Positions 30,782-40,923 of a DNA stretch of 50,855 nt are shown here, piece by piece (positions within the stretch are counted from its first letter, which is position 1; the number at the start of each line of letters is the position of its first letter). The notes beneath the pieces are model-generated. The model was given only the letters and a program-made list of their open reading frames with translations, ran no database searches and was not told where the DNA came from. Made by a program: the position numbers and the translations under genes. This stretch comes from a virus (Duplodnaviria > Caudoviricetes). The stretch covers positions 1 through 50,855 of the IMG/VR virus record IMGVR_UViG_3300020045_006039, one strand, 5' to 3'.

Positions 30782-31212
30782 GCTATCTCGATCTCCCCTC
30801 TGCGATACGCCCGCAACATTTTCAGCGCATAAGTATCGGCGTCTCTCTCGCTGAATTGGCCGCGAGCGCCCCACACACGCCAGCCGCGCGGATGCTTGGC
30901 TTGCCACAGATGGCGGAGTTCGTGCGCTGTCACGGTTAGCAATGCCTCAAGCCGACTGTAAAATACCATCGGCAGATATGCGCCATGCTCAGGCACAACG
31001 ATCGGGTATTTGTCGTCCTTGCCGATCGAGACAATGACCAGCGGCGCGGCGGTGGCGTGATACGCACAACCCTCACTGTAGGCCATGCCCCGATACGCGC
31101 CGCGACAATTCTTGATCGAAATATCGAAGCCGCTTACATCGGCGGGCTTGACTGCCCGAATGATGGCGCGGATCGTTTCGTCTGGAATGTCGGTATAGTT
31201 TTTGAGTTTCAT
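30778..31212 (-). CDS. Zincin-like metallopeptidase
   Basis: HExxH (AHELRH) plus downstream 'ERDADTYA'. Confidence 0.7.
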   Translation of the reverse strand: MKLKNYTDIPDETIRAIIRAVKPADVSGFDISIKNCRGAYRGMAYSEGCAYHATAAPLVIVSIGKDDKYPIVVPEHGAYLPMVFYSRLEALLTVTAHELRHLWQAKHPRGWRVWGARGQFSERDADTYALKMLRAYRRGEIEIA

Positions 31213-32669
31213 GCCTTCACCCCCTGCGGCGCGGGCAGCGCCTCGATCGCCGCGATTCGCTTACCAAGCCATTCCGAGCACGGCACGGCGACCGCATTGC
31301 CAGTTTGCCGATAGCGGGTTGAATCACTTTGACCCGCCGTATGGTTATCGGGGAAGCCCTGCAAGCGTTCGCACTCGATCGGCATCAATCGACGAACGCC
31401 CATGCTACCCGCGATAGCATCCTCGCGGCCTGACAGTTGAGCGATACCGTCCTTGCGATGAATAACAGTTCGATCACTACCGCCCATAAATGGATCGAAG
31501 GCGATGATCGGATTCTGATAATTCAAAGAATGACCGCCCGTCTTTTTGCTTTGCAGTGTACCGCTGATACCGTCAGGTTGCTCTCGCATATTTCGCACAT
31601 CGATCGCGGAGACAATAAAAGTTTCTTCTGACCCATCTCCTAGCCTCTGATTCTTTGCCGTCAATGCTTTGGCGATATAGTTCTGCTGTTTCATGCCTGC
31701 CTCAGCCGATAACGCACCGACGATAGCGCCATCGCCGTTGATCATTCGTACTTCGTCGCGGGTGTTTTGCTGAAAGGCTACCGCATGAACTTCGCTGGAA
31801 TTAAGAGTGTAACTCGAACCGTCGGTAATCACCTCGCCATACTGCGGGCCGTTCTGAGGCTCACGACCTATCGACGCGCCTTTTATAACCGCGATCATCT
31901 TTTCGGCTTCGGTTCGTGCGTTGCCCGTGCGACTTGTTCCAGCGCCGCTTGCAGGAATGGCGGCAACAATTTGCCGCGCTTCTCGGCTCGGCGCAGAATC
32001 CCACGCGCCGCTTTCTGACTCAAATAATACTTGCGCGGCGCGTCCGCTTCCAAGACTTCCGACAATGAACACACGGCGGCGGCGCTGGGCCACTCCAAAG
32101 TATTGAGCGTCAAGTATCCGCCACGCGACGCCATACCCGCATTCGACCAACCCGCGAAGGATAACGGCAAAATCTTGTCCGCCGTTGCTGGATAAAAGAC
32201 CGGGGACGTTCTCGATAACAACCCATCGCGGGTTAAGGTCTGCAAGAATGCGATGGAACTCAAACCATAGTCCGCTTCGCTTTCCAGCCAATCCCGCGCG
32301 GAGTCCGGCCACCGATACGTCTTGACAGGGGAATCCTCCGCAAATAAGATCAACTGCTTCGACTGCTTGGCTGTTGATTTCTTTGACATCGTTAATCCTT
32401 TGGGTGTGGGGATAATGACGCTCTAAAACTTTTTCAGTTGATCGCCCGTAATTATTCAACTCCGCCCACTTCGATTTTATTTTCTTGACTTGCTTTGGCG
32501 ATGTTGCCGCTTCAATCTCTGCGTTGTGCTCAGACAGCGCATAGGGAGATTCGTCAGGACGGAATAGATCGCACTGAAAAGCGCAACGCATTCCAGCGCG
32601 ATCGAAGCCGACATCGAATCCGCCAATGCCTGTAAACAAACTACCGTAAGTAAGTGGCCTACCAGTCAT
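31209..32669 (-). CDS. dcm: DNA (cytosine-5) methyltransferase
   Basis: Motifs I (LFTGIGG), IV (GFPCQ), VI (ENV), VIII (QRRRR), IX (RRLMPIECERLQGFP) and X (GNAV). Confidence 0.95.
   Translation of the reverse strand: MTGRPLTYGSLFTGIGGFDVGFDRAGMRCAFQCDLFRPDESPYALSEHNAEIEAATSPKQVKKIKSKWAELNNYGRSTEKVLERHYPHTQRINDVKEINSQAVEAVDLICGGFPCQDVSVAGLRAGLAGKRSGLWFEFHRILADLNPRWVVIENVPGLLSSNGGQDFAVILRGLVECGYGVAWRILDAQYFGVAQRRRRVFIVGSLGSGRAAQVLFESESGAWDSAPSREARQIVAAIPASGAGTSRTGNARTEAEKMIAVIKGASIGREPQNGPQYGEVITDGSSYTLNSSEVHAVAFQQNTRDEVRMINGDGAIVGALSAEAGMKQQNYIAKALTAKNQRLGDGSEETFIVSAIDVRNMREQPDGISGTLQSKKTGGHSLNYQNPIIAFDPFMGGSDRTVIHRKDGIAQLSGREDAIAGSMGVRRLMPIECERLQGFPDNHTAGQSDSTRYRQTGNAVAVPCSEWLGKRIAAIEALPAPQGVKA
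31895..32389 (-). CDS. Overprinted +1-frame protein inside the C5 MTase (putative accessory subunit)
   Basis: Own SD AAGGA 7 nt before ATG; 164 codons open; 'CSLSEVLEADAPRKYYLS..AARGILRRAEKRGK.LP'. Confidence 0.6.
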   Translation of the reverse strand: MSKKSTAKQSKQLILFAEDSPVKTYRWPDSARDWLESEADYGLSSIAFLQTLTRDGLLSRTSPVFYPATADKILPLSFAGWSNAGMASRGGYLTLNTLEWPSAAAVCSLSEVLEADAPRKYYLSQKAARGILRRAEKRGKLLPPFLQAALEQVARATHEPKPKR

Positions 32670-32911: not shown

Positions 32912-33307
32912 CTACTTCTCCCCGCCCCTCACCGCGTCCAGCCCCAGCCGCCCGCGCCGCACGTTCCACGCATCGGCGCAGCGAATGAGCCGCAGGGCGT
33001 GCGCGGCGTCGGCCTCGTTGCGGTTGCGGACGCGCAGCACGCGGATGCCGCTCGTCACATAGTCCAGTTCGTCGCGTTCCTTGTCGCGCGCCCGATCGTG
33101 TTCCGGGCCGTCTACCTCGATCGCAATGCCTAAGCGTGCATTCCAGAAGTCGAAGATACGATAGCCCCATACGGCTTGTCGTGTCCAGCGGTAGCCGGTC
33201 GCCCTCAACTTGTCGCGCAGCCAGTTTTCGTTCGGGTTGCGGCGGGCTAGTTCGAGGTTCTGCGCGCGGCGGCGTTGCATGTGGGGGGTTATCGGTTGTG
33301 GGGTCAT
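32912..33307 (-). CDS. DUF559/Vsr-like endonuclease
   Basis: 'IFDFW...IAIEVDGPEH...DKERDE...GIRVLRV.N'. Confidence 0.85.
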   Translation of the reverse strand: MTPQPITPHMQRRRAQNLELARRNPNENWLRDKLRATGYRWTRQAVWGYRIFDFWNARLGIAIEVDGPEHDRARDKERDELDYVTSGIRVLRVRNRNEADAAHALRLIRCADAWNVRRGRLGLDAVRGGEK

Positions 33308-33510
33308 GCAACAGCCCTTTTTAGTTCATCGAATATCTCGTTCTTGATTTCATCCTCGATGTCGTGCCACCACCAATCGAACCCCTTGCGACTATTGAGA
33401 ACTTTGTAAGCCCTCCAAGCGCGTTGAGTTTCCAAGTCTTGTCGGCCTATCTTTTCATCATAGTTCTGAGTGCCGTCATACATCAGTTCGTACAGATCTA
33501 TAAAGTTCAT
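33304..33510 (-). CDS. Hypothetical protein (68 aa)
   Basis: ATGA overlap with the RNase H stop (MNFIDLYE...). Confidence 0.55.
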   Translation of the reverse strand: MNFIDLYELMYDGTQNYDEKIGRQDLETQRAWRAYKVLNSRKGFDWWWHDIEDEIKNEIFDELKRAVA

Positions 33511-33902
33511 TGTCCCAACCTCGCCATATTCGACAACTCGTCGCACCGTTCGTTTTCGGGATGGCCGGTATGCCCGCGTATCCATTCGGTCGTGACGCGG
33601 TGCTGACTGACCAACGACTTGATCCGCAACAGTAGTTCGATATTCGCCTTCGGTTTCTTCATGCCTTCGATCGCCTTCTGTGTGTACTCGCTGTCTGTCC
33701 AGATCGTCACGTCGTGCGGCCCGCCCTTGAGTGCCGATAGCGCCTCGATCACGGCGGTCAATTCGGCGGTGTTGTTCGTGGCGATCGGTAGCCGTCCGCT
33801 GATCTCTTTCGTCTGCCCGTTGGCTTTCAGGATCGCCGCCCAGCCGCCTGTACCGCCAGGGTTCGGCCATACGCTGCCGTCGGTGTAGATGTCGATGTGC
33901 AT
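33507..33902 (-). CDS. rnhA: Ribonuclease HI
   Basis: All catalytic motifs present: YTDGS, NNTAEL, TDSEY, WIRGH, NERCD. Confidence 0.95.
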   Translation of the reverse strand: MHIDIYTDGSVWPNPGGTGGWAAILKANGQTKEISGRLPIATNNTAELTAVIEALSALKGGPHDVTIWTDSEYTQKAIEGMKKPKANIELLLRIKSLVSQHRVTTEWIRGHTGHPENERCDELSNMARLGQ

Positions 33903-33960
33903 TTGTTCGTTGTCCTTTCAGGTAGTTTGTTTTGGATAATCATTGTTGTGGTGTATGCGT

Positions 33961-34256
33961 AATCCTCCTATCACATGATCAATGGTGCCGATCACGGATA
34001 GAAGGATTGATCGATAATCACCGCCGTGGAGTGCTTTACAGGAACACTCACCCGATGCCGTGGCTACGTGTGCCACAAACGATCCAGCCGCCGCTTACAA
34101 GAGACTCAACGCGCTCAGGTGGTTGAATTTACCGCGTAGCCATTCGGCTTCGTCTCTTGCATCCTGCCCAAAGGCAAACCGACGGAGGTTAACATGTTGA
34201 TCTGAGTCGGCGGATTTGGATACTTGCACACGGACTTTGACGCGGTGATCAACCGC
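33961..34256 (-). ncRNA. Large multi-stem non-coding RNA upstream of rnhA
   Basis: At least seven stems in a gap with no credible ORF; their mismatches resolve as G-U pairs on the minus strand. Confidence 0.65.
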
Positions 34257-34271
34257 AGTATTGATCAGTCG

Positions 34272-34280
34272 TGCTATAAT
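34272..34280 (+). promoter_or_regulatory. Extended -10 promoter of the antisense sRNA
   Basis: TGCTATAAT. Confidence 0.65.
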
Positions 34281-34285
34281 TTAGT

Positions 34286-34362
34286 TGTGAGTGTGCAGAC
34301 TCACAGCGTTGTAAAACGCGAACGGCGGCTACTGACTTACGTCAGCGGTCGCCGTGTCGTTT
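34286..34362 (+). ncRNA. ~77-nt three-hairpin antisense RNA
   Basis: SL1 34286-34305, SL2 34306-34319 (GUAA loop), SL3 34322-34355 (G-U pairs on +). Confidence 0.65.
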
Positions 34363-34888
34363 AATGTTGCTTATACGGGTTAGACTCTGCGATCTGTAAA
34401 TACAAGTTGCCGCTACATCCATCGCTAACCCCGCATTTCCAGTCACACTTCACTTGTATCTTGACTTCCATCTTGACTAAAATATCAAGCCCGCTAATTT
34501 GCATTTGCTTATCTTCAACAATTTCAGGCGCGGCGTTCATGGGGAACAGGCCGCGATTCAATAAGACCCTAACAACTTCAACTGCTTTGTTACCCTTTGA
34601 TGTTGTGTTGTCCGCCTTGTTAAAATCAACCGCTGCAACCACGTCGGCGGGGATGTCCACAACTCGCAAGCCATCAATGTCGAAAGGCGGGACAAGCAGC
34701 CCCATCGCCGTTAAAATCGATCCGGTGTAAGCTGGTGCTTCGTGGTAGTGATGAGACTTAATTGCCCGCACAGCACTAGATGTCTGAAATACATAAACAC
34801 ACTCACCAACTACTGAGACATGCGCCCGCAGATCGCTCTTTTCTTGAAGTATTCCATATTCAAACAGGCTCATGCTTGATTTCCCCAC
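34361..34888 (-). CDS. Restriction-endonuclease-fold (PD-(D/E)xK-like) protein
   Basis: 'QISGLDIL...KIQVKCD...GNLYLQ'; overlaps the MT-A70 stop. Confidence 0.55.
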   Translation of the reverse strand: MGKSSMSLFEYGILQEKSDLRAHVSVVGECVYVFQTSSAVRAIKSHHYHEAPAYTGSILTAMGLLVPPFDIDGLRVVDIPADVVAAVDFNKADNTTSKGNKAVEVVRVLLNRGLFPMNAAPEIVEDKQMQISGLDILVKMEVKIQVKCDWKCGVSDGCSGNLYLQIAESNPYKQH

Positions 34889-35862
34889 ACATCCCAGCCG
34901 ATATGTTGCGCCCGCGCAAATAACTCGATGCGCTTGCCGTGTGTGTATATCTCGTCAATGATCGATCTAAACTCTTCCGGCTTTTCGCTATGCTTTTCAG
35001 TCCGTTCGATTTGCTGAACGCTATCATGCAGTTTTAGATTATCGGGCGTGCAACTGCCTCGCGTACACACTAACAAAAACTCGTGACGAACGCTGTTGTA
35101 ATGCCCAAAGTTATGCTTGACCTTATCCCACACGAAAGACGTTTTATACTCAAAGCCCCATGCCTTGATCACGCTGAAAGATTCTTCGAGTAGTGGTGAG
35201 GTTGTCCACAAAAACAAAACGGCGTCATCTTCAACCAGTGACTTGATCGGCAACAAACAAAGTTGCTCGATCGTCATGGTCGGATAATGCCGCTCGGCAT
35301 GTCCATAGTTATCATTGTCTGTTATCACGCCGGAGTCATTGTACTTCCACGGTGGATCAGCATAAACGATTCGATACTTCGCATCGGGCAGATCGGGCGC
35401 GTCGCTCATGGCTTGCCGCCGATCCTCTCTGTCAATTTCTTTAGCCAGCCTCAGCACGCCGCTGGTTGTCATCTCTTGATCTTCGTCTCTGGATTCTGAT
35501 ATGTAATTCTCGAAGGCTTTAGCGGGGAGTTGTGCGATCTGTTGCCAGCGCGAGGAATCGGCTTTTTCAATTCCTAAATCTGAAAGGGTCGGCTTGGAAA
35601 CGGTATCATCTTGTAACCGTTTTTCTGGACGCCCGCCGTTCTGCCGATCCATCTTGATCAAAATCTCACCGGCGCGACGTTGCGCCCGTAACTTGATCTC
35701 CGCCGCGTGGTTCTGTGCCTCAAGCCCTAATTCAACCTCGCGGGCATAGACACGAGCGGCCTCGGCTAAGTTGATGATCTTCTTAGCGTCATCGACTGTC
35801 TTGATCTCTGATAGCATCCGCGTGGCGTCTGTTAGTTTTTGAAGTCCGGTTTGTTGTGTCAC
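34870..35862 (-). CDS. MT-A70 family N6-adenine methyltransferase
   Basis: 'IVYADPPW', 'HYPTM', 'LFLWTT', 'HSEKP' and 'IELFAR...GWDVWGNQ'. Confidence 0.93.
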   Translation of the reverse strand: MTQQTGLQKLTDATRMLSEIKTVDDAKKIINLAEAARVYAREVELGLEAQNHAAEIKLRAQRRAGEILIKMDRQNGGRPEKRLQDDTVSKPTLSDLGIEKADSSRWQQIAQLPAKAFENYISESRDEDQEMTTSGVLRLAKEIDREDRRQAMSDAPDLPDAKYRIVYADPPWKYNDSGVITDNDNYGHAERHYPTMTIEQLCLLPIKSLVEDDAVLFLWTTSPLLEESFSVIKAWGFEYKTSFVWDKVKHNFGHYNSVRHEFLLVCTRGSCTPDNLKLHDSVQQIERTEKHSEKPEEFRSIIDEIYTHGKRIELFARAQHIGWDVWGNQA

Positions 35863-36098
35863 GTTGTCCCCACTATCTTAAATTTCTTCACTGCCCACCA
35901 CGGGCGCGATCGTCCATCTTGAGATAAGAAGCAATTTGAATGAATAGACGTAATCGAGTAATCGAACCAGCGATCTTCATCGACGCCATTCTTGAGATCA
36001 ACAAACCGGCAAAGGCATTTCACCTTGACCGGCTCACTCAGTTTATTGTTATTCGTTTTTTCTTGCAATAATTTCTGTAACTCGAATCCTAGTTCCAT
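35859..36098 (-). CDS. Hypothetical protein
   Basis: SD GAGGA; overlaps the MT-A70 start. Confidence 0.55.
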   Translation of the reverse strand: MELGFELQKLLQEKTNNNKLSEPVKVKCLCRFVDLKNGVDEDRWFDYSITSIHSNCFLSQDGRSRPWWAVKKFKIVGTT

Positions 36099-36107
36099 GT
36101 GTCCTCA

Positions 36108-36240
36108 CAAAACAAAAGCGCCTTTCACCTGCGTCTGTGCCTGTGCTGTGGAAGTGCCAATCGAGGAATGGCATTAGCAGAACACAGGCGCATGTGAAAA
36201 GCGCCTATCCCCGATGCTTTACGGCTTCCACACCGTTATA
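36108..36240 (-). ncRNA. C4/CI-like attenuator leader RNA
   Basis: Terminator stem 36118-36128/36194-36204 with U-tail; its loop and bulge are complementary to two upstream segments. Confidence 0.6.
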
Positions 36241-36328
36241 CACAAACATTATACACCCGTTGTCAAGTGCCTGCAAGTCAAAGTGTCTACAACATTTCTT
36301 TTACGGCCTTTGCACATTTGGTCATCTT

Positions 36329-36396
36329 TGCCGCCGCCGGAGTCGAACCGTTTTATCGGACTGCAAATCCGATCTCGTCCCACGTCTATCAGCGGC
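36329..36396 (-). ncRNA. tRNA-like element (degenerate, UGC anticodon loop)
   Basis: Acceptor-like stem GCCGCTG/CGGCGGC, anticodon arm TCGGA-TTTGCAG-TCCGA, T-loop GGTTCGACTCC; D and T arms shortened; no CCA. Confidence 0.5.
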
Positions 36397-36451
36397 AAAC
36401 ATGCGCGATGCCGTGCGCGATATTCTCCTGTGGCTCAGTATACCTCATCTG

Positions 36452-36745
36452 TCAACTGACAAAATACTTGACGCGGGGAGAGCCGTCTGGTAGCATTACG
36501 GTCGCCACTTTCGCCAGATACTTTTCCATTTGTTCTTCGTCGAGTTGAATCTGTTCTTCGTATTGCTTTCTGGCGTCGTTTACTTTTCCGCTGCCGTCGC
36601 ATTCTTCGCACTCCATATCGCCGCCGCAGTGTGGGCATTCGTCCGTGCCAGTTCCGCGACATTCACGGCATTCGACTTCTTGGAGTAACACTTCTGGATT
36701 TTGCTCGATCCATTCTTCGTAGGTTAGGTGCTTAAATGTGCTCAT
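36452..36745 (-). CDS. DnaJ-type zinc finger protein
   Basis: CRECRGTG, CPHC and CEECDGSG. Confidence 0.7.
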   Translation of the reverse strand: MSTFKHLTYEEWIEQNPEVLLQEVECRECRGTGTDECPHCGGDMECEECDGSGKVNDARKQYEEQIQLDEEQMEKYLAKVATVMLPDGSPRVKYFVS

Positions 36746-36822
36746 CGTTTTTCCTTCCCCGCCGTGTCAACTGGCAAAATCGCGCCGCTTGTCAAGCCGC
36801 GCCGCCTTAGCCCCGCCCGCTG

Positions 36823-37071
36823 CTACGCATTGTTGGCGCGGTCAAATTCAGCGTCTCTTAGCGCAATCAATTCATCCGCATGTTCCATCGCTTCATCATA
36901 CACTTTCTTTGCGGACTCGTCTATCCATATGTTTTCCATTGCCACGGCCTCGCCCGTTTCTTTATTCACTGTGACTCGTGGCAAGCAAGACATGGAGTAT
37001 ACCTCAGCCGCCGCATTAACAATTAGATCAATGTATTCGGTATAGTGTTCTATTTTCGCATTGGTTATCAC
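36823..37071 (-). CDS. Hypothetical protein
   Basis: AAGGAG SD, GTG start. Confidence 0.55.
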   Translation of the reverse strand: MITNAKIEHYTEYIDLIVNAAAEVYSMSCLPRVTVNKETGEAVAMENIWIDESAKKVYDEAMEHADELIALRDAEFDRANNA

Positions 37072-37178
37072 GTCACCTTCTCCTTTATCGTATCGCCCGC
37101 TGCGCCGTCGCTAGTCGCGCCGCCCGTCAAGCCGTCACCCGCCCGATCGTCCGGTTCAAGCGGCGGCGCGGGCGTGGG

Positions 37179-37592
37179 TCACTTTAGTTTATCCGGGTCA
37201 AACTCATCAAAGACGATCCTCGCCTTTGCGGTTTGCGTCTTTCCGTTAAGGTAGTATTCATTCCACAGATCGCCAGTTTCATCGCCTTCGCCGTGAAGCG
37301 TAAATAGAATCGACCTAAATTTATTGCTCAGTGCCAGCATGTCAAGTTGATGATCATGCCACTTGCTGGCCTCGCCGCCTTCTCCGTCGAGTTCGTCACC
37401 GAGCGCATATTTCATTTCGGCGGTTATTAAATCGCTAGATAGCAAAACTTCTATCAACGACATTTCGACGTTGGGCTTGCCGCAAGTTGGGCAAAACATC
37501 GCGCCCGCCGGTTTTTTGTGGTCGCACCTTTCGTGCTTTGTTTTTTCGTCGGTGTCTTTCCATGTCAGTGTGTAGTGTGTGTAATATCCCAT
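37179..37592 (-). CDS. Phage hypothetical protein with zinc ribbon
   Basis: AAGGAG SD; FCPTCG; 'KWHDH...TLHGEGDE..DLW'. Confidence 0.7.
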   Translation of the reverse strand: MGYYTHYTLTWKDTDEKTKHERCDHKKPAGAMFCPTCGKPNVEMSLIEVLLSSDLITAEMKYALGDELDGEGGEASKWHDHQLDMLALSNKFRSILFTLHGEGDETGDLWNEYYLNGKTQTAKARIVFDEFDPDKLK

Positions 37593-40083: not shown

Positions 40084-40923
40084 CTACAGGCCGGTATCGT
40101 CTCGGCCTAGTTGTTTCTTGTTCTTGGCGAGAGTCGCCATTGATTTGGCAGTAACGGGATCAGCGCCCGCGTCGTTCAGGAATACGTCTGCCTGCGCTTT
40201 TTTGAATCCCATCTTTTCGGCGTCGATATAGAACTGCGCGGCGGTGTATTCCTTAGCGTCGTGATCAACCACCTCTGATCCTTCGAGTTCCCAATCGCCA
40301 GGGTATACCGCTTCGTCGTCCGCATCATTCGCCGCTGCCATGCCGAACGGAACATCGAATCTCCGCTTGAGCGCGTCGGCCTCGGCTCGTTTCATCGCGC
40401 ACTGGACAGGCTTCATTTTGGTATTTTCACCGCGCTCGATCATTCCGATTCCAATCGTGTACGGCTTACTTCCAACCATGTCCTTGACAACCTCCCACGG
40501 CAAGCCTGCTTTCGTCAAGCGTTCAACCGTGCCGGTGTACGAAAGAATGTTCGATGTATCGTACAGTCGGGCTTCGTAAGCCAGCGCGCCATCTGGTATC
40601 TGCAATTCCTTTCGCTCGTCAATATCTTTGATTGCTCGAAAGTCAATCCAGAAGTTACCCTTGTCTTTCATTTGCTGTCGCGCACATTTACGCAAACCCT
40701 TGACGCCAACCATTAGCCCTCGATTCGGGATCATCCATATTTCGCCATTGAACGGGTCAAGGTTGTGAGCGATTGCAGCCTGAGCAAGTGCTAGACGTTG
40801 CGATTGATCGAGTTTGCCGGGGAGCATCAGCGCCAGACGCTTGTCGAGTTCACGCAGGTCTGCGCGCGTGCCGTAAAGATCGATTCCGTTTTGTTGCGTT
40901 GTTGCGATGTTGGTAGTAGTCAT
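40084..40923 (-). CDS. RecT/Red-beta-like single-strand annealing protein
   Basis: 'NLDPFNGEIWMIP...VGVKGLRK' and 'MKRAEADALKRRF'. Confidence 0.75.
   Translation of the reverse strand: MTTTNIATTQQNGIDLYGTRADLRELDKRLALMLPGKLDQSQRLALAQAAIAHNLDPFNGEIWMIPNRGLMVGVKGLRKCARQQMKDKGNFWIDFRAIKDIDERKELQIPDGALAYEARLYDTSNILSYTGTVERLTKAGLPWEVVKDMVGSKPYTIGIGMIERGENTKMKPVQCAMKRAEADALKRRFDVPFGMAAANDADDEAVYPGDWELEGSEVVDHDAKEYTAAQFYIDAEKMGFKKAQADVFLNDAGADPVTAKSMATLAKNKKQLGRDDTGL

Follow-up and report, generated by a model that had tools for sequence, protein, structure and literature searches.

An extended EGFOA-type RNA beside an RNase H gene in a tailed phage and its possible role as a replication pre-primer

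We found that an intergenic RNA of a tailed phage belongs, with near certainty as judged from its sequence, to the EGFOA family (Rfam RF02955), and that it is an extended EGFOA variant and not a new class. The window, meaning the entire stretch of DNA analysed, is a whole virus record of 50,855 bases with direct terminal repeats at its ends, and its gene content is that of a tailed phage (terminase, capsid and tail genes in profile scans). The original prediction could assign the RNA to no known family; however, the Rfam EGFOA model matches 34098-34211 of the minus strand over its full length (model positions 1-108) at 47.7 bits against a gathering cut-off of 37.7 (E = 1.3e-5), which excludes a new RNA family, and EGFOA was the sole family to reach gathering level in the Rfam search of the window. 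Our own model R1 scores the same copy at 54.8 bits, the copy being within the training set of that model. As for function, we regard it as an even call whether EGFOA RNA acts as a ColE1-like pre-primer that starts phage DNA replication. This is the best supported of the functions considered, although most signals in its favour come from relatives and few from the window copy itself. What is new here is the 3' anatomy and the genomic context of EGFOA.

The RNA occupies a 460-base gap in the minus-strand early arm, flanked by a methylase and a conserved unknown gene on one side and by an RNase HI gene on the other. Its parts and neighbours are as follows.

34870-35862, minus strand: MT-A70 methylase, upstream of the RNA (profile match)
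34361-34888, minus strand: conserved unknown protein, between the methylase and the RNA
34272-34355, plus strand, within 34264-34360: extended -10-like motif (read by eye), then two hairpins
33935-34270, minus strand: extended EGFOA-type RNA of about 335 nt, with ends estimated from folding and two relatives
34098-34211, minus strand: Rfam EGFOA core, full model
34202-34206, minus strand: 5' strand of pseudoknot 1, pairing with 34114-34118 in the large loop (covariation)
34177-34185, minus strand: near-invariant CCGUC and 5' strand of pseudoknot 2 (34177-80 with 34121-24)
34165-34176, minus strand: short hairpin behind CCGUC (Rfam model and constrained fold)
34096-34161, minus strand: three-way junction of helix 34152-61/34096-105, hairpin 34138-49 and helix 34133-37/34109-13
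34026-34093, minus strand: 3' extension beyond the Rfam model, with arm 34088-93 (pairing with 34208-13) and hairpins 34059-77 and 34026-51
34013-34029, minus strand: repeat copy R1, 17 nt, 5' of the terminal hairpin
33961-34008, minus strand: terminal hairpin with a purine-rich 3' arm and no U-tail; a GGAGG-type tract replaces the G-run of the family
33935-33951, minus strand: repeat copy R2, identical to R1 at 13 of 17 nt
33931-33939, minus strand: single DnaA-box-type 9-mer (sequence match)
33507-33902, minus strand: RNase HI gene (PF00075, E = 5e-29), with its own ribosome-binding site at 33912-19

Compared with RF02955, the window copy has the same full-length core above the gathering level, the conserved core residues and the three-way junction, but it is about three times as long as the model, its G-run is reduced, and its 3' extension recurs in only two of the relatives fetched, both metagenome loci (L259 and L250). 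No viral contig carrying the extension pattern was matched in a pattern search, and no cultured phage resembling the window RNA or that of L336 was matched in a search.

We examined the proposed fold and its strand. The original prediction listed eight stems and placed the RNA on the minus strand. Seven of the stems pair as given, and across their 53 positions we observed seven A-C oppositions on the plus strand, each a G-U pair on the minus strand, with no plus-strand G-T and no other mismatch; minus-strand polarity is therefore confirmed. The remaining one, the long-range stem 34082-93/34208-21, had arms of unequal length, and the region consists of two helices separated by an internal loop. 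Stem 34105-10/34122-27 can be paired on paper but was rejected, as it conflicts with pseudoknot 2 and the covariation-backed helix P4. The minimum-free-energy fold pairs CCGUC with GGCGG further downstream; the family at large does not share this pairing, which we likewise dropped. The folding z-scores of 33961-34256, a check suggested with the prediction, were -3.98 on the minus and -2.72 on the plus strand; most of this signal comes from the 48-nt hairpin 33961-34008 (z = -6.9 on the minus strand), the remainder giving only -1.0 to -1.6, and 4 of 54 GC-matched genome windows fold at least equally well. Beyond that hairpin folding energy is thus weak proof of structure, and the real evidence is covariation. 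The region is intergenic and holds no coding frame, with no stop-free frame running across 34096-34206 on either strand.

Pattern scans of viral, genome and metagenome contigs yielded 193 matches, of which 145 passed helix filters and 93 remained as loci that are not near-duplicates. Across these 93 homologous loci two pseudoknots covary, both entering the large loop closed by helix 34133-37/34109-13, and neither helix is in the printed Rfam structure line. Pseudoknot 2, which was not a selection criterion for the 89 loci tested, pairs at all four positions in 79 of them, compared with 11.9% when strands are mixed across loci, and pseudoknot 1 alternates between two matched forms in 79 of 83 loci. 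In alignment A3, which comprises 63 of the 93 loci, 84% of cells pair versus 66% after shuffling, and two-sided changes number 354 versus 142. The window copy pairs fully in both pseudoknots, using its own letters. Family members contain GNRA- and UUCG-type loops, and invariant unpaired residues are packed between the two pseudoknots. A selected minus-strand RNA fold is thereby supported. The supplement of a 2017 study reportedly describes the EGFOA family. The main text of PMC5737381 makes no mention of EGFOA, and the pseudoknots may already be described in its supplement or in the figures of a recent cryo-EM preprint (bioRxiv 10.64898/2026.07.01.735769).

Next, we investigated the region 3' of the core. 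At each locus the most stable hairpin 20-190 nt behind the core was chosen regardless of sequence. Its 3' arm contains a G-run of at least four in 70 of 88 loci, compared with 10 of 88 for hairpins upstream and 7 of 70 for more distant ones. A U-tail follows this hairpin in only 6 of the 88 loci, so the 3' hairpins are not ordinary terminators; in the window, a test for intrinsic terminators likewise found no U-tract after the terminal hairpin. The window copy has no G-run, its longest run being two within a purine-rich arm. In ColE1 RNA II, a G-run lies near the 3' end of the pre-primer.

In 23 of 86 loci (p <= 0.01) the hairpin sits between two copies of a short direct repeat. The window is among these loci, and none of 100 shuffles reached the score of its R1/R2 repeat. 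All four differences between the window copies have G in R1 and A in R2, and among 33 related loci 35 differences are of this wobble-tolerant kind (G first, A second) versus 15 of the reverse. This bias fits re-pairing of the RNA with template DNA, yet does not count as independent evidence for it. R1 and R2 can also each pair with a duplicated 5' segment in the window, which would explain the repeat without DNA invasion. We call the 9-mer at 33931-33939 DnaA-box-type on the consensus that we take to apply, and five such 9-mers occur in the whole window genome. As a family feature DnaA boxes were rejected, since they show no enrichment (3 near the RNA versus 28 in the background, 74 loci); DnaA-type boxes are confined to the Paenibacillaceae plasmid type.

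A second signal behind the core is a primosome-like motif, AGCG[ACT]AGCG, which we derived from the loci and the ColE1 record. Of 30 low-GC loci, 15, all of them related Bacillales, have it at a distance of 80-380 nt behind the core; of 46 high-GC loci, none has it. Hits behind the core number 24 sense and 6 antisense in 9 kb, compared with 0 and 3 in 127 kb of flanks. In ColE1, one of two positive controls, the motif is found once, at position 1333, about 150 nt past a G6 run. That run lies shortly ahead of an A-run, which we take to be at the position of the origin. pAMbeta1, the other positive control, has one sense-strand copy, which lies about 190 nt beyond the origin sequence as published, and one copy elsewhere on the opposite strand; on the primer strand of both plasmids the motif occurs only past the origin. 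The accessible parts of two papers describe the primosome site ssiA downstream of the pAMbeta1 origin (PMC5703833) and the order RNase H, Pol I, ssiA in ColE1 (PMC3167613). AGCG[ACT]AGCG may be the functional part of ssiA. The motif is absent near the window copy, which is thus without both the G-run and the motif, two of the signals that carry the case in relatives. Six loci (L160, L190, L191, L226, L267 and L331) have facing primosome-like hairpin motifs on both strands 100-300 nt behind the core, arranged as for a two-way start site. A similar motif region is found on a Lysinibacillus plasmid (L364, 4000-4100), in a 900-base gene-free gap and with no EGFOA core.

The window RNA ends 60 bases before the RNase HI gene, on the same strand, and the translation of this gene contains acidic motifs at what we assume to be the active-site positions. 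An RNase H-type gene lies directly downstream of EGFOA in three other lineages, on the same strand in two (L257, L424) and facing the RNA in one (L336); the adjacency was seen at none of 185 chance-match loci (p ~0.03, roughly 82 loci). None of 35 RNase H-bearing viral records contains EGFOA and only one of 10 EGFOA viral records has an RNase H-like gene, which rules out an obligate partnership; a non-obligate link would be expected if a host enzyme usually serves. No initiator, primase, helicase, polymerase or integrase was detected in the window in 50 Pfam, 93 PHROG and 18 NCBIfam scans, but 79 of its 93 ORFs have no PHROG match, so a divergent initiator could be missed. A genome with the same layout of RNA then RNase H (G071) has no initiator, primase, helicase or polymerase in 32 ORFs. 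In a capsid relative (G066), EGFOA and RNase H are both missing and a lambda-O-like initiator is encoded, and another genome without EGFOA (G069) also shows no initiator in the 17 ORFs scanned.

When turning to other mobile elements, we observed that EGFOA frequently lies next to genes for integrases, serine recombinases or excisionase-like proteins, and that ParA, FtsK, Zot and SSB each turn up as a neighbour in single cases. In Bacillales islands EGFOA sits just behind excisionase-like genes. Att-like repeats surround EGFOA in 4 of 10 tested regions, delimiting islands of 2.75, 5.2, 7.7 and 8.1 kb, and no Rep was found on any of these four. One genome (G010) has two EGFOA copies (L345, L346) 17 kb apart, each near a tRNA gene, and one of them lies within a 2.75-kb att-flanked unit in which no integrase was found.

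One EGFOA variant query matched 10 plasmid records; five other EGFOA-region queries returned no EGFOA plasmid, one of them matching just the downstream motif region. Complete circular Paenibacillaceae plasmids carry EGFOA cores, mostly beside ParA or tubulin-like partition genes, the latter presumably of TubZ type. Six plasmids carrying the core or its surrounding block were read, and in four of them (P. durus, 15 kb; B. borstelensis, 30 kb; P. larvae, 61 kb; P. amylolyticus, 69 kb) Rep is absent by annotation or Pfam, within PLSDB gene tables that are incomplete; those of P. durus DSM 1735 and B. borstelensis CP19 are complete and from cultured strains. The other two have RepA directly upstream and ParA directly downstream of the EGFOA block, and the Brevibacillus plasmid has a backbone in common with a RepA plasmid, yet is without RepA. 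The Rep-less P. larvae plasmid encodes a DnaG-type primase. On the P. amylolyticus plasmid the core is divergent, scoring 13.6 bits, and behind it come a G8 hairpin, DnaA-type boxes and the motif. Replicon typing with MOB-suite gave no result for all six plasmids, RepA-bearing ones included, so its silence is uninformative, and a literature search found no papers on Rep-less Paenibacillus replicons. On P. peoriae pPlas2 (L450, 14170-14310, minus strand) the block that follows EGFOA is kept together with ParA, with no EGFOA core and no Rep; another RNA may occupy the EGFOA slot. A 6.8-kb contig from a Legionellales bin (L153/L356) has ParA and an EGFOA region matching Paenibacillaceae plasmids, and is probably misbinned. 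GC skew was set aside: in the window it follows gene strand, and gene strand also confounds the detrended minima that two plasmids show near EGFOA.

If EGFOA RNA is a pre-primer, the steps that we infer, namely transcription, hybrid formation, cleavage and priming, would run as follows. Around the terminal hairpin, the folded minus-strand transcript would remain paired with its template as an RNA-DNA hybrid. RNase H would cleave this hybrid, and host polymerase would start phage DNA replication by extending the cut end. More speculatively, the RNA copy of R1 might re-pair with the template at R2, where the four G/A differences would form rG-dT wobbles. Strict sequence conservation of the core appears to exceed any obvious need of a primer and would count against this mechanism. 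The likeness to ColE1/pMB1 RNA II, as described in the accessible parts of PMC3167613 and PMC6380287, would lie in a structured untranslated RNA, RNase H and the lack of Rep, if the reading holds, and EGFOA relatives add a G-run together with a primosome-like motif, comparably spaced. The differences are that here RNase H is phage-encoded, that the window copy lacks both signals, and that as a candidate counterpart of antisense RNA I the window offers just the plus-strand -10-like motif and the hairpins 34272-34355. Model R1 had no hit in the ColE1 record, so EGFOA is not a member of the ColE1 family and would at most work alike. The pAMbeta1 (Inc18) origin with ssiA resembles the EGFOA arrangement, going by the part of PMC5703833 available, in its same-strand downstream motif and a primer made by transcription, but replication of pAMbeta1 depends on RepE, and an EGFOA core is absent from it. 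Rep-free plasmid replication supported by structured RNAs with no relation to ColE1 is described for the Vibrionaceae MRB replicons and for ARRPOF (accessible parts of PMC6380287 and PMC5737381); ARRPOF is a different family, with no Rfam match in the window, and MRB is set apart by description only.

A wider reading, which we rate slightly below an even chance, is that EGFOA forms the core of a widespread protein-free, RNA-primed replicon that shares no sequence relationship with ColE1 and serves tailed phages, Paenibacillaceae plasmids, inovirus-like elements and very small integrated islands, and that this phage swapped its initiator gene for EGFOA RNA and an RNase H of its own. Were EGFOA a pre-primer, an orphan RNA would gain a job, the replication of several Rep-less plasmids and small islands would be explained, and an RNA-only origin would exist in a tailed phage.

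The strongest competing explanation, possible though we doubt it, is that EGFOA is a trans-acting structured RNA of mobile elements (a scaffold, a protein decoy or a self-assembling RNA) that has nothing to do with replication, its terminal hairpin merely protecting or ending the transcript. For some homologues a promoter of their own, sigma-70-like, was read by eye; Rfam types EGFOA as an sRNA, and the available portion of the preprint (bioRxiv 10.64898/2026.07.01.735769) cites EGFOA members as putative small RNAs of large intergenic regions and reports cryo-EM structures of one trimer and one strand-swapped dimer formed in vitro; no function is stated in the literature found, that portion included. 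EGFOA is also present in phages that encode replication proteins: an EGFOA-like RNA lies alongside a replisome organiser in G046 and a DnaB helicase in G073, and three further carriers (L233, L196, L198) have replication proteins of their own; such carriers also count against the pre-primer reading. A trans-acting role gives no account of why the primosome-like motif is strand-specific, why plasmids carry DnaA-type boxes, why EGFOA sits between rep and par genes, or why RNase H genes are neighbours.

It is improbable that EGFOA acts as a ribozyme, with the double-pseudoknot core cleaving or otherwise processing the transcript, whether replication follows or not. The invariant unpaired residues between the two pseudoknots speak for it, and such residues resemble catalytic cores. 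However, an Rfam search of 33000-37500 with a limit of E = 10 gave no ribozyme family, no known self-cleaving ribozyme or riboswitch matched at the site, and the preprint, in its accessible part, reports no cleavage of purified EGFOA RNAs (bioRxiv 10.64898/2026.07.01.735769). Somewhat less probable again is a signal acting as single-stranded DNA (sso-like) for complementary-strand synthesis, in which RNA would play no part. EGFOA does occur on Zot-bearing inovirus-like elements, beside primosome-like sites, and such motifs can act as ssDNA (PMC5737381, accessible part); the GNRA- and UUCG-type loops, the G-U polarity, the RNA folds seen by cryo-EM, the upstream promoters and the occurrence in tailed dsDNA phages all argue against it. 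Two of the inovirus-like elements, the 15-kb P. durus plasmid (L448) and a locus of G059 (L352), bear Zot and EGFOA and have no recognisable rolling-circle Rep. Least probable of all is that the RNA regulates the RNase H gene in cis, as a riboswitch or attenuator in its leader, a role of the kind that the original prediction had offered. The RNA lies 60 nt ahead of the gene on its strand and the order is repeated in two other phages, but none of the helices of the constrained fold includes the ribosome-binding site, and no U-tail follows the terminal hairpin. Downstream neighbours are also diverse, and of 77 first ORFs picked mechanically about 34 point towards the RNA, which disfavours any such role.

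For the EGFOA RNA as a candidate pre-primer, we also considered its promoters and neighbours. A promoter scan gave no consensus match for a sense promoter on the minus strand. The plus-strand -10-like motif at 34264-34360 is directed away from the RNA and is also present in L259; no full promoter was found there in a consensus scan, and the motif with its hairpins could serve to terminate the upstream genes, or could give a short antisense RNA. The MT-A70 methylase and the unknown gene behind it are upstream neighbours of the RNA by position only. The unnamed protein has 45 listed homologue clusters, itself counted, and contains a D...QVK motif that we take to be nuclease-like, and together the two genes (34361-35862, minus strand) are a possible restriction-modification pair. 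Further genes observed on the minus strand are a C5 cytosine methylase (31209-32669), inside which a second long same-strand ORF runs (31895-32389), a tRNA-Ala(UGC) gene (36327-36398), and a RecT-like single-strand annealing protein (40084-40923), missed by Pfam and PHROGs and recognised by Atlas features with a score of 0.94.
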